Shown piece by piece: positions 1 through 4,110 of a stretch of 4,110 bases of DNA (positions are counted from its first letter, which is position 1; every line of letters begins with the position of its first letter). A program made the position numbers and the translations under genes. The notes below the pieces were generated by a model. It was given only the letters and a program-made list of their open reading frames with translations, was not told the origin of the DNA and did no database searches. This DNA is from a virus (Duplodnaviria; Heunggongvirae; Uroviricota; Caudoviricetes), in IMG/VR virus record IMGVR_UViG_3300018478_000010, positions 1 to 4,110 of that record. One strand, given 5' to 3'.

Positions 1-1066
1 GAAGTGGATTGAAGTGATGCATTCGGTTTACCCGAACATTGACCGCGATACATCGAAGCTGGATAGCAAGAACAAGCCATTCAAATCGGTTTATTACGAG
101 GTTGGTGGCGATAACGACAAGTTGTTGCGTGAGTCCGGATTTGATGAGTTTCCAATTATGGCTCCGCGCTGGGAAGTTAATGGCGAAGATGTTTATGGAT
201 CATCATGCCCGGGTATGCTGGCGCTTGGACCTGTTAAGGCATTGCAGCTTCTCCAGAAGCGCAAGTCGCAGTTGATTGATAAAGCCACCAATCCGCCGAT
301 GGTTGCTCCGACTTCCCTCAAGAATCAGCGCGCCTCCCTTCTTCCTGGCGACATCACGTATATCGATCAGATTACTGGTCAGGATGGCTTCAGGCCTGCT
401 TATCTGGTTAACCCCAGTACAGCAGATCTGGTAGCAGACATTCAGGACACTCGTCAAATCATTAACAGCGCCTACTTTGTCGATCTGTTCATGATGTTGC
501 AGAACATCAATACCCGCTCGATGCCTGTTGAAGCAGTGATCGAAATGAAAGAAGAAAAGCTTCTGATGTTGGGGCCAGTTCTGGAGCGTCTGAACGACGA
601 ATGTCTTAATCCTCTCATTGACCGCGCTTTCTCGATGATGGTGCGTAAAAACATGCTGCCGCCACCGCCTGACGCGATGGAAGGCATGCCCCTGAAGGTC
701 GAATACATTTCCGTCATGGCTCAGGCGCAGAAGTCTATCGGCCTGTCCAGTCTGGCGTCCACGGTTAACTTCATTGGTCAACTTGCGCAAGCGAAACCAG
801 AAGCTCTCGACAAACTCAACGTTGATCAGGCGATCGATGCATTCGCTGATATGTCCGGAGTGTCTCCAACCGTCATTGTTCCGCAGGAACAGGTTGAGCA
901 GGCTCGCCAGCAACGGGCACAGCAACAACAGCAGCAACAAATGATGGCGATGGGGATGGCGGCGGCACAGGGGGCCAAGACGCTAAGCGAAGCTAAAACT
1001 TCGGATCCGAGTGTGTTGTCAGCTATGGCGAATGCAGTTAGTGGTCAGGGTGGGCAATCACAATGA
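1..1066 (+). CDS. Probable portal protein, C-terminal ~355 codons; 5'-partial, reading frame is open to the window edge. Alternative: a large minor head-morphogenesis protein.
   Basis: Frame 2 is open from position 2 to TGA at 1064-1066 with no upstream stop, so the GTG at 14 in the ORF track is probably internal. A large protein directly upstream of small protein, scaffold-like and capsid-like genes is the usual portal position in tailed-phage head modules. The stop overlaps the next gene's start (ATGA at 1063-1066). The C-terminus is Gln/Met/Ala-rich (QQRAQQQQQQQMMAMGMAAAQGA). No homology search was done. Confidence 0.6.
   Translation, partial: KWIEVMHSVYPNIDRDTSKLDSKNKPFKSVYYEVGGDNDKLLRESGFDEFPIMAPRWEVNGEDVYGSSCPGMLALGPVKALQLLQKRKSQLIDKATNPPMVAPTSLKNQRASLLPGDITYIDQITGQDGFRPAYLVNPSTADLVADIQDTRQIINSAYFVDLFMMLQNINTRSMPVEAVIEMKEEKLLMLGPVLERLNDECLNPLIDRAFSMMVRKNMLPPPPDAMEGMPLKVEYISVMAQAQKSIGLSSLASTVNFIGQLAQAKPEALDKLNVDQAIDAFADMSGVSPTVIVPQEQVEQARQQRAQQQQQQQMMAMGMAAAQGAKTLSEAKTSDPSVLSAMANAVSGQGGQSQ
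920..940 (+). repeat. Short CAG/CAA tract encoding seven consecutive Gln in the C-terminal tail of the portal-like protein
   Basis: Read directly in frame: cag caa caa cag cag caa caa, followed by atg atg gcg atg ggg atg (MMAMGM). Confidence 0.6.
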
Positions 1067-1359
1067 CAGATTACGAAGACGATCAACTGAAAGAAGAAAA
1101 CGCCCGTAAGCAACGTGACATGGCGCAGCGTGAAATTGATGACATTCGCTTTGTCATGAGCAGTGAACAGGGGCGTCGCGTTGTCTGGTCGGTGCTGGAG
1201 AAAGGCCGTGTGTTTTCCGCTATCTCACCGATGGACGCTATGGCAATGGCATTTAATGAGGGGCAACGCAATCTGGCGCTGGAACTGTTTCAGCGCGTTA
1301 TGGCGCATTGCCCTGAACAGTATTTGAAGATGGCCAAAGAGGCCAGTGAACAGGAGTGA
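1063..1359 (+). CDS. Hypothetical small head-module protein (98 aa), charged and helix-prone
   Basis: ATG at 1063 overlaps the upstream stop (ATGA), with a purine-rich stretch (cagggtggg, 1046-1054) about 8 nt upstream. TGA at 1357-1359 lies inside the Shine-Dalgarno region of the next gene. Composition is protein-like, whereas the antisense ORF 1083..1271 is Cys/Ser/Arg-rich. Function unknown. Confidence 0.65.
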   Translation: MTDYEDDQLKEENARKQRDMAQREIDDIRFVMSSEQGRRVVWSVLEKGRVFSAISPMDAMAMAFNEGQRNLALELFQRVMAHCPEQYLKMAKEASEQE

Positions 1360-1361
1360 TC

Positions 1362-2057
1362 ATGAATTTATTTGAGCGTTTGCTGTATCGCCGTCTTTGC
1401 AATGAGCAACCAGTCGATGGTGGAGCAGCTCCGGCTGCGTCAGAACCGTCAGCGCCTGCAGGTGATAACCCTGCTCCAGTTGGTGATCCATCACAACAGG
1501 AAGGTGATAAGCCACAACCTGTTGCTGATGGCGATAAACCTGCTGATGACAAAAAGCCTGAAAACGATAAGCAGGATGAAAAAAAGGACGGCGATAAACC
1601 AGAGGGTGCGCCTGAGAAGTACGAGTTTCAGGCTGCCGAAGGCGTAGAGCTGGATACAGAAGCGTTGAAGGAATTCGAGCCGGTGGCGCGAGAACTTAAC
1701 CTGACCAACGAGCAAGCGCAAAAGCTGGTTGATGCTTATCCGAAGATTCTGGCAGGTGTTCAGCAGCGCCAGGCAGAAGCCTGGCAGAAAACAACCGAGC
1801 AGTGGGCTGCGGATGTAAAAGCTGACAAAGAAATCGGTGGCGACAAGTTGATTTCTAACCTTAGCGCCGCACAGCGTGCGCTTGACCAGTTCGGGACACC
1901 TGAACTCAAAGAATATCTGAACACCACCGGACTGGGTAATCACCCTGATCTGGTCAAAACGTTCGTGAAAATCGGAAAGGCGATGTCTGAAGATGGCATG
2001 GTCACCGGTGGTAATGAAGGCCAGCGTAGTGCGGCCGAAGTGCTCTATGGCAAATAA
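1362..2057 (+). CDS. Probable capsid scaffolding protein (231 aa): acidic, with a Pro/Asp/Lys-rich low-complexity N-terminal region and a helix-prone C-terminal half
   Basis: ATG at 1362 is preceded by AGGAG at 1352-1356 (5-nt spacer); the GTG at 1356 in the ORF track sits inside that Shine-Dalgarno and is unlikely to be the start. It lies immediately upstream of the capsid-like gene, ends at TAA 2055-2057, and has an acidic, Ala/Glu/Lys/Gln-rich composition typical of scaffolding proteins. Assignment is by position and composition only. Confidence 0.6.
   Translation: MNLFERLLYRRLCNEQPVDGGAAPAASEPSAPAGDNPAPVGDPSQQEGDKPQPVADGDKPADDKKPENDKQDEKKDGDKPEGAPEKYEFQAAEGVELDTEALKEFEPVARELNLTNEQAQKLVDAYPKILAGVQQRQAEAWQKTTEQWAADVKADKEIGGDKLISNLSAAQRALDQFGTPELKEYLNTTGLGNHPDLVKTFVKIGKAMSEDGMVTGGNEGQRSAAEVLYGK
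1461..1600 (+). repeat. Four imperfect in-frame repeats gg(t/c)gataa(n)cc encoding G-D-(N/K)-P within the scaffold-like gene
   Basis: Copies start at 1461 (ggtgataaccct), 1503 (ggtgataagcca), 1530 (ggcgataaacct) and 1590 (ggcgataaacca). Spacings are 42, 27 and 60 nt, all multiples of 3, and each copy is in the coding frame. Confidence 0.6.
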
Positions 2058-2071
2058 GAGAGGAAATGACA

Positions 2072-3058
2072 ATGGCTGTTAAAGACTTAACTGCGCTAAC
2101 GCTGGCTGACTGGGGTAAGCGCGTCGATCCAAACGGGAAAGTCGATAAGATTATCGAGCTTCTCGGTCAAACTAACCCGATCCTTCAGGATATGCCTTTT
2201 GTCGAAGGGAACCTTCCTACCGGACACCGAACCACCATTCGTTCTGGTTTACCTTCAGCTACCTGGCGTTTGCTGAACTATGGCGTACAGCCAAGCAAAT
2301 CAACCACAGTGCAGGTAACCGATTCCGTTGGCATGCTGGAAACCTATGCTGAAGTCGATAAGTCACTGGCTGATCTGAACGGCAATACCGCCGAATTCCG
2401 CCTGTCTGAAGACCGCGCATTTATTGAAGCGATGAATCAGCAGATGGCGCAGACGCTGTTTTATGGTGATTCCAGCGTTAACCCTCAGCAGTTTATGGGA
2501 CTGTCCTCCCGCTATTCCAGCCTGTCTGCAGGTAATGCTCAGAACATCATTGATGCTGGTGGCACGGGTACAGATAACACCTCAATCTGGTTAGTGGTGT
2601 GGGGCGAAAACACCGTGCATGGCATCTTCCCGAAAGGGCAGAAGGCTGGCATCCAGATGGAAGATAAAGGCCAGGTGACACTGGAAGATGCTAATGGCGG
2701 CAAGTACGAAGGCTATCGCACCCATTACAAATGGGACAACGGACTTGCTCTGCGTGACTGGCGTTATGTTGTTCGCATTGCAAACATCGATGTCAGCAAT
2801 CTTTCAGAACCTTCCTCTGCCGCAAATATTGCGAAGTTGATGGTTAAAGCACTGCATCGCATTCCAAACCGTGGAATGGGTCGCCCGGTGTTCTACATGA
2901 ACCGCACTGTAGGCCAGGCTCTTGATCTGCAATCTCTGGAGAAAACATCTCTGGCGATCAGCGTAAAAGAGACAGAAGGCGAGTGGTGGACTTCATTCCG
3001 TGGTGTACCAATCCGTGAAACTGATGCGCTTCTGGAAACAGAAGCCCGTGTGGTGTAA
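2072..3058 (+). CDS. Probable major capsid protein (~328 aa from ATG 2072; 330 aa if ATG 2066 is used)
   Basis: Long ORF directly after the scaffold-like gene. GAGG at 2060-2063 gives a good 8-nt spacing to ATG 2072, whereas ATG 2066 is only 2 nt from it. Size fits a capsid protein that relies on a separate scaffold. It is followed by a stem-loop and small head-protein genes. TAA at 3056-3058. No homology search was done. Confidence 0.7.
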   Translation: MAVKDLTALTLADWGKRVDPNGKVDKIIELLGQTNPILQDMPFVEGNLPTGHRTTIRSGLPSATWRLLNYGVQPSKSTTVQVTDSVGMLETYAEVDKSLADLNGNTAEFRLSEDRAFIEAMNQQMAQTLFYGDSSVNPQQFMGLSSRYSSLSAGNAQNIIDAGGTGTDNTSIWLVVWGENTVHGIFPKGQKAGIQMEDKGQVTLEDANGGKYEGYRTHYKWDNGLALRDWRYVVRIANIDVSNLSEPSSAANIAKLMVKALHRIPNRGMGRPVFYMNRTVGQALDLQSLEKTSLAISVKETEGEWWTSFRGVPIRETDALLETEARVV

Positions 3059-3073
3059 CGCCTGTTATTAACC

Positions 3074-3095
3074 AGTGGGTCGTAACAGACCCACT
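3074..3095 (+). promoter_or_regulatory. Perfect 8-bp inverted repeat / RNA stem-loop (AGTGGGTC-gtaaca-GACCCACT) in the intergenic region after the capsid gene; no U-tract
   Basis: Seen directly: 3074-3081 agtgggtc, loop 3082-3087 gtaaca, 3088-3095 gacccact, which is the exact reverse complement. It sits 16 nt after the capsid stop and just upstream of the GGAG Shine-Dalgarno (3099-3102) of the next gene. It is followed by aatgg rather than a T-run, so it is not a classical intrinsic terminator. It could be a transcript-stabilising or processing hairpin, a partial terminator, or a protein-binding palindrome. Confidence 0.4.
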
Positions 3096-3109
3096 AATGG
3101 AGAAAGAAG

Positions 3110-3547
3110 ATGATCACCGACAAACTGTTGATGTTCTCCGAAGCACAGGCGGTAACTGATACCGCGGCTTCTACTGACGTAATCGATCTAGGTCCAATTG
3201 ATGGAAATCGTCGCGATATCGGCGTGGGTTACCCGCTTGAGTTTTGGGCGCTGGTTAACGAAGCCGCCACGGCAAGTGGTGAGGCAACTGTAAACATCCA
3301 GTTGCAGACGAGTGAGAATAACAGCTCATGGTCCACTATTTATGATAGTGGCGCACTGGCAAAGGCTACCCTGACAGCAGGTAAACGAGTTGTTTCTGCA
3401 AAGGTGCCTGCCGGTGTTCAGCGATATCTGCGTGTTAACTACTCCGTCGCAACTGGCCCACTAACGGCTGGCAAATTCACTGCGGGTATCAATCTTGATG
3501 TTGATGCCAATACGCCGTACCCGATCCGCTCAAAAGTAACTGGTTAA
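3110..3547 (+). CDS. Hypothetical head protein (145 aa), Thr/Ala/Gly/Val-rich; candidate decoration, cement or minor capsid protein
   Basis: ATG at 3110 with GGAG at 3099-3102 (7-nt spacer) and TAA at 3545-3547. It lies immediately downstream of the capsid-like gene. Composition suggests a beta-rich protein. Function is inferred from context only. Confidence 0.6.
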   Translation: MITDKLLMFSEAQAVTDTAASTDVIDLGPIDGNRRDIGVGYPLEFWALVNEAATASGEATVNIQLQTSENNSSWSTIYDSGALAKATLTAGKRVVSAKVPAGVQRYLRVNYSVATGPLTAGKFTAGINLDVDANTPYPIRSKVTG

Positions 3548-3557
3548 GGTGATTTCG

Positions 3558-3893
3558 ATGTCAGGTGAGAAACCAAGATACCGCGTTCTGCGCCTCTCTC
3601 ATATCCATAACACACTGTGGCCGGAGGGGGCAGAAATCGAATACGAAGGTGAGCCTGGTAGCGCACTGGAACCTGTTAACGATGCAGCCAGACAGGCAAA
3701 AGCAAAAGTTGCAGGAAAGGTGTCAATGGCAGCAACCAGCACCAAAATCATCAACGATGTGTCAGATGATGGTGAACTGGATAAGCTCCGTGAAGAGTAC
3801 GAATTGCTCTTTAACGAGAAGCCACACCATAACGCCAAAGCCGAAACGCTCCGCGAGAAGATCGCAGATAAGCGTAAAGAACTGGGCGTGTAA
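3558..3893 (+). CDS. Hypothetical protein (112 aa from ATG 3558; 114 aa if GTG 3549 is used), with a charged helical C-terminal half
   Basis: AAGGTGA at 3546-3552 is a Shine-Dalgarno about 6-7 nt upstream of ATG 3558; the GTG at 3549 lies within it. TAA at 3891-3893 is followed 17 nt later by a strong hairpin terminator. The overlapping +1-frame ORF 3565..3975 is Cys/Arg/Ser-rich and runs through the terminator, so this frame is preferred. Confidence 0.6.
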   Translation: MSGEKPRYRVLRLSHIHNTLWPEGAEIEYEGEPGSALEPVNDAARQAKAKVAGKVSMAATSTKIINDVSDDGELDKLREEYELLFNEKPHHNAKAETLREKIADKRKELGV

Positions 3894-3909
3894 GCCTCGC
3901 GAATCAGAC

Positions 3910-3931
3910 AAGGGGCTTCGGCCCCTTTATT
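3910..3931 (+). terminator. Rho-independent terminator candidate: GC-rich stem with UUCG tetraloop (aaggggc-ttcg-gcccctt) followed by ttatt
   Basis: Seen directly: 3910-3916 aaggggc pairs with 3921-3927 gcccctt around the loop ttcg (3917-3920), followed by a short T-rich run. It sits 17 nt after the stop of the 112-aa gene. The U-tract is short and interrupted, so termination is probably partial. Confidence 0.6.
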
Positions 3932-3943
3932 GCAGGAGTGTAT

Positions 3944-4071
3944 ATGGAACTCGTAAACCTCAAAACCGGCACTGACAGCTACCAGGATGAGAGCGGAGAA
4001 ACCAGAACTCGCGATGAATACCCGTGGGGGCTGTGCATCACGCTGAATAACGACACATTGAATAAGCTGAA
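3944..4071 (+). CDS. 5' end of a further hypothetical gene (MELVNLKTGTDSYQDESGETRTRDEYPWGLCITLNNDTLNKL...); 3'-truncated artificially at the adapter junction
   Basis: AGGAG at 3934-3938 with a 5-nt spacer to ATG 3944. The frame stays open into the adapter, and the apparent C-terminus (...DRKSTRLNSSH*) is translated adapter, not genome. Only about 42 genuine codons are visible, so the product cannot be assigned. Confidence 0.45.
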
Positions 4072-4110
4072 AGATCGGAAGAGCACACGTCTGAACTCCA
4101 GTCACTGACC
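4072..4110. other. Non-biological sequence: Illumina TruSeq indexed adapter read-through (AGATCGGAAGAGCACACGTCTGAACTCCAGTCAC) plus TGACC, the start of an index
   Basis: Positions 4072-4105 match the TruSeq adapter 34-mer exactly. The following TGACC is consistent with the start of a 6-nt index such as TGACCA. On the reverse strand this yields the well-known spurious peptide motif TGVQTCALPIF. Confidence 0.9.

Follow-up and report, generated by a model that had tools for sequence, protein, structure and literature searches.

TruSeq adapter sequence joined to Escherichia coli prophage DNA at the 3' end of a viral sequence

The window analysed here, a stretch of 4110 nt from an IMG/VR virus record, ends in 39 bases (4072-4110) that are a known technical artefact and have no biological meaning. 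Because synthetic TruSeq adapter is joined in it to ordinary E. coli prophage DNA, the end is an artefact of laboratory work and assembly, and untrimmed Illumina adapter read-through that was built into the assembly is almost certainly its explanation. The consequence is one of data hygiene only: bases 4072-4110 should be trimmed, and neither the 54-aa "gp10" product nor the 168-aa antisense open reading frame (ORF) at this end is fit for annotation or protein clustering. The features of the window are collected in Table 1.

The adapter and its junction with prophage DNA

In a string search of the window, the 34-mer AGATCGGAAGAGCACACGTCTGAACTCCAGTCAC matched at 4072-4105 on the + strand with all 34 of its 34 bases, while the number of exact matches expected by chance is about 2.8e-17 (both strands of 4110 nt, with equal base frequencies assumed). 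This 34-mer is the stem of the TruSeq index adapter, partial strings of which are quoted in PMC11536531. The 3' end of the window reads …AATAAGCTGAA, then AGATCGGAAGAGCACACGTCTGAACTCCAGTCAC, then TGACC, with the adapter occupying the final 39 bases and pointing outward. The first-pass annotation had described these 39 nt as TruSeq adapter followed by the first bases of an index and had proposed an adapter screen; the screen returned the exact match of 4072-4105 to the TruSeq stem, and TGACC fits index 4, in agreement with that description.

When the 24 TruSeq LT indices were tested, TGACC was found to be the prefix of just one of them (index 4, TGACCA), and a random 5-mer would have a chance of about 2% of fitting any of them. 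The five index bases present are suggestive of index 4, but five bases would also be compatible with other index sets built on this stem. When compared with the complete TruSeq index adapter, which consists of AGATCGGAAGAGCACACGTCTGAACTCCAGTCAC, the index and ATCTCGTATGCCGTCTTCTGCTTG, the window shares 34 of 34 stem bases and has an index-4-like continuation over the next five, but it has only these five index bases and is without the P7 tail; therefore the kit and the index cannot be named with certainty. Other 12-mers from the TruSeq, Nextera and P7 sequences were tested as well, and none was found elsewhere in the window, the 5' end included, so the 5' end is considered clean.

The position of the junction was obtained from the relatives. 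Every inspected alignment to relatives that carry gp10 ends at exactly 4071. A three-way alignment shows …GCTGAA-GGCGCAACCTAAGGGCGTCGG… both in the E. coli E2865 prophage and in phage phiV10, whereas the window reads …GCTGAA-AGATCGGAAGAGC…; past …GCTGAA the two references run on as GGCGCAACC… (GGCGCAACCTAAGGGC…), and the window has AGATCGG instead. Since the window and both references diverge at this point, the last genuine base is 4071. Authentic homology halts at the junction and the native genome differs beyond it, which is the pattern of adapter contamination. In the relatives with gp10, the junction is followed by the remainder of this gene and then by a 201-aa and an 823-aa gene. The earlier statement that the genomic context past the adapter is unknown holds for this contig, but the context is predictable from the relatives as the gp10 remainder and the 201-aa and 823-aa genes. 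The break in the contig is technical and carries no information on the boundary of the prophage.

Table 1. Features of the window, with positions counted from its first base.
Feature	Position	Strand	Basis or remark
Portal gene, C-terminal part	2-1066	+	Pfam Head-tail_con, E = 4e-107
Bbp19-like gene	1063-1359	+	Pfam Phage_Bbp19
231-aa gene, "peptidase" in RefSeq	1362-2057	+	RefSeq label
GP7 major capsid gene	2072-3058	+	Pfam GP7, E = 2e-149
Bbp16 capsid cement gene	3110-3547	+	Pfam Bbp16
111-aa gene	3558-3893	+	
gp10 capsid-staple gene, genuine 5' part (codons 1-42 and two bases of codon 43)	3944-4071	+	Stretch identical to E2865
Chimeric ORF (gp10 residues 1-43 and DRKSTRLNSSH)	3944-4108	+	Adapter frame 2; stop encoded by the index
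Antisense ORF, putative shadow ORF, with adapter-encoded start (GTG, MTGVQTCALPI)	3599-4105	-	Opposite the 111-aa gene and gp10
TruSeq index-adapter stem (read-1 read-through sequence)	4072-4105	+	Exact 34/34; homology of inspected gp10-bearing relatives stops at 4071
Index start, five bases TGACC	4106-4110	+	Fits TruSeq index 4 (TGACCA)

Reading frames altered by the adapter

Two reading frames run across the junction, and for both of them the earlier reading was upheld: the + strand gene that starts at 3944 had been said to acquire a false C-terminus, and the minus-strand ORF of 3599-4105 to begin inside the adapter. Native gp10 is a protein of 107 aa (MELVN…LNKLKAQPKGVGTEV…GNGGE) that matches Pfam PF21628 Gp10-like with E = 6.8e-52 and is annotated in RefSeq as "gp10: capsid staple protein". 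In the window, the ORF from the ATG at 3944 reads MELVN…LNKLKDRKSTRLNSSH up to its stop (…LNKLK-DRKSTRLNSSH) and has 54 aa, its end DRKSTRLNSSH being frame 2 of the adapter. Codon 43 (4070-4072) spans the junction and is AAA in place of the native AAG, both of which encode Lys; because this junction-spanning codon is still Lys, the product is composed of 43 genuine and 11 adapter-encoded residues. The index supplies the stop codon, as it opens with TGA (4106-4108). Unlike the gp10 of epsilon15/phiV10-like phages, gp10 in the window is ended after residue 43, where the adapter takes over, and this truncation is an artefact and no protein variant.

The antisense ORF has 168 aa and starts with a GTG, to which the terminal CAC of the adapter corresponds in reverse complement. 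Frame 1 of the reverse-complemented adapter gives VTGVQTCALPI, and the N-terminus MTGVQTCALPIF of the ORF is accordingly adapter-encoded. The adapter did not create the ORF: in the native prophage the same antisense frame is open, as a 159-aa ORF with a TTG start (MRLQLIQCVV…, locus L001 4100-4579), and the adapter swaps the first three residues of this native ORF for 12. It was considered whether the ORF could be a real gene whose start had been disturbed, and this was rejected, as it lies entirely antisense to two conserved annotated genes. It is also without a Pfam match, and a minus-strand gene at this place is neither annotated in RefSeq or in phiV10 nor called in the ten gene-called contigs, which speaks against a gene as well. 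The native frame of about 159 codons is most simply read as a shadow ORF and not as a gene. For the chimeric gp10 and the 168-aa antisense protein, no record with the exact sequence was found.

Such peptides recur mechanically, since in each direction two of the stem's three frames lack stop codons. Among 125 listed copies of the 34-mer in species-representative bacterial and archaeal genomes, the ORF that starts at the adapter GTG has at least 30 aa in 58, at least 60 aa in 28 and at least 100 aa in 16. The adapter-derived peptides VTGVQTCALPI, DRKSTRLNSSH and RSEEHTSELQS can link unrelated proteins in similarity searches. The first-pass annotation had called the antisense N-terminus a recurrent contaminant peptide in protein databases. 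The evidence on this point is indirect and consists of one deposited protein with the peptide and of the 28 of 125 listed copies with a GTG ORF of at least 60 aa; a full-text literature search with the strings GVQTCALPI, LSLHDALPI, STRLNSSH and VQTCALPIF found no paper. The deposited protein is WVW77611.1 of Stenotrophomonas phage vB_SmaS_Bhz63, which contains …YFLVTGVQTCALPIFRQLY… because its coding sequence spans an internal copy of the adapter. In the phage record (OR797046.1, locus L123 1343-2173) it is a "hypothetical protein" of 276 aa with the adapter peptide LVTGVQTCALPIF, and two unrelated fragments have probably been fused in the coding sequence.

The 34-mer in other collections and the origin of the adapter-bearing end

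The adapter stem is found at sequence ends in several other collections. Among species-representative bacterial and archaeal genomes, at least 120 stretches carry the 34-mer, and the unrelated lineages listed include Caulobacteraceae, Lachnospiraceae, Bacteroidales, Chloroflexi, Synechococcus, Myxococcota and Streptococcus mitis. Among the matches listed, the end of the locus is no more than 20 nt away for 99 of 125 copies and no more than 150 nt away for 122 of 125. The listed copies always point outward, being on the + strand at 3' ends and in reverse complement at 5' ends, and the stem is followed in listed copies by known TruSeq indices (ACTGAT, ATTCCT, GATCAG, GTGAAA, CTTGTA, GCCAAT). In IMG/VR, at least 120 viral contigs contain the 34-mer; among the matches listed, 107 of 123 copies are within 100 nt of an end, and TGACC follows the adapter in 10 of the 123. 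Nineteen GenBank phage records carry it as well, with most copies within about 150 nt of the record end, and these records belong to phages of Mycobacterium, Bacillus, Caulobacter and Vibrio hosts and include the RNA phage MS2.

Moeller et al. 2024 (BMC Genomics 25:1033, PMC11536531) give the same geometry for this artefact, with adapters concentrated at contig ends and reverse complements at contig starts, and with the adapters at contig ends adjoining CACACGTCTGAACTCCAGTCA and breaking contiguity. The contamination in that study shares the universal 12-mer AGATCGGAAGAG with the window, and the forward-specific CACACGTCTGAACTCCAGTCA comes after it at the contig end. When compared with those cases, the window shows no difference in kind and represents a further instance, in a prophage contig.

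With the exact stem, the junction at 4071, the native continuation in the relatives and the contig-end geometry elsewhere, the earlier claim that the assembly ends in untrimmed adapter read-through is supported, and the course of events may be reconstructed as follows. A library fragment of prophage DNA would have ended at 4071. The A at 4072 would then come from end repair and A-tailing, and ligation of the TruSeq index adapter would have followed; in TruSeq chemistry, the A at this position pairs with the T overhang of the adapter after A-tailing. With an insert shorter than the read length, read 1 would have entered the stem (4072-4105) and then the first index bases (4106-4110), and adapter trimming of the reads would have been absent or incomplete. 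The assembler would have followed the k-mers from genome into adapter and then halted, either because the read ended or because the adapter k-mers were common to many unrelated reads. The outcome would be a gp10 shortened and given a false tail of 11 residues, and an antisense shadow ORF with a synthetic GTG start. This account presumes that the insert was short, that trimming was lacking and that the window and the contig end at the same base. Searches of IMG/VR and JGI metagenome contigs for the 35-nt junction string gave no match, and none of the data speak against the account.

Other accounts of the same 39 bases have to be weighed against adapter read-through. The window could be cut out of a longer chimeric contig, in which an adapter-mediated mis-join leads on to an unrelated fragment beyond 4110. 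Internal copies of this sort do occur, at about 2-3% of the copies elsewhere: three of the 125 listed copies in representative genomes are more than 150 nt from the locus end, and there are internal copies in the vB_SmaS_Bhz63 coding sequence and in two complete E. coli chromosomes. But for 97-98% of the listed copies an end is no more than 150-250 nt away and the copy points outward, and the window itself stops after five index bases, its odd length of 4110 resembling that of a whole contig. We consider a mis-join very improbable, and if true it would still be the same artefact. A second reading takes 4071 for a meaningful or recurrent physical end of the phage DNA, such as a packaging terminus or a site of preferred breakage, with the adapter ligated straight onto it; several complete phage records have the adapter within about 100 nt of the record end, where it possibly abuts a terminus. 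However, 4071 falls within a coding sequence, 128 nt into gp10 and amid the head genes; the terminase genes (Terminase_2) precede the portal gene, and 516 complete genomes have the region unbroken. A single junction is uninformative on recurrence, and there is no hint of such an end in the sequence; this reading is given a still smaller chance than the mis-join. That the 39 bases are natural sequence, similar to the adapter through chance or horizontal transfer, has a negligible probability: about 3e-17 matches are expected by chance, the inspected relatives with gp10 are all without the string at this site, and among the matches listed the string stands at sequence ends across unrelated phyla and is followed by known indices. 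Natural sequence is excluded by the exact match, the junction alignment and the distribution of the 34-mer.

The adapter string is present in only two of 5,426 complete E. coli genomes, both times among chromosomal genes (che and bgl/pst loci), and no phage head genes are found near the adapter in these two chromosomes. The internal copies of the 34-mer are at L125 2501-2535 (NZ_AP046542.1 2224711-2224745) and L126 2501-2533 (NZ_AP040990.1 4842174-4842206). The genes cheY and cheB flank one copy, and the other adjoins a bglG pseudogene noted as "missing N-terminus". The presence of internal adapters in "complete" RefSeq chromosomes of E. coli suggests adapter-mediated mis-assembly or polishing errors.

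The genuine head-gene module

Identity and gene order mark the genuine part of the window (1-4071) as the head-gene module of a temperate phage or prophage of E. coli that is epsilon15/phiV10-like (Uetakevirus). Its gapless identity is 98.6% to the E. coli E2865 prophage, 98.2% over the 4071 nt to phiV10, with the same gene order, and up to 99.4% to the best complete E. coli genome. At least 80% of the window is covered in 516 of 5,426 complete E. coli genomes. The genes follow in the order portal, Bbp19-like, 231-aa gene, GP7 capsid, Bbp16, 111-aa gene and gp10, and the head-gene order and Pfam matches are common to the window and the epsilon15/phiV10-like phages.

Some minor observations were made on this module. 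The 231-aa protein has no Pfam match, and the N-terminal half of the protein is acidic and rich in Pro, Asp and Lys. From its composition it looks more like a scaffolding protein than the "peptidase" of the RefSeq annotation. The exact protein sequence is present in 10,816 blocks of a public assembly collection.

Between the 111-aa gene and gp10, at 3903-3927, there is a G+C-rich hairpin (AAGGGGC-TTCG-GCCCCTT) followed by TATT, which is conserved in relatives both with and without gp10. The hairpin looks terminator-like, and it was not reported by a simple terminator scan because its T-run is too short.

The gp10 gene itself behaves as a clean presence/absence cassette among these prophages. 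It is absent in two of the ten gene-called relatives, ENA k141_31001 and CP064847.1 (L128 about 7548-7604 and L135 about 7533-7589), in which the hairpin after the 111-aa gene leads directly into the 201-aa gene (MASVVEICNRAL…). In the relatives that lack gp10, homology to the window ends at 3939, five bases upstream of the gp10 ATG.
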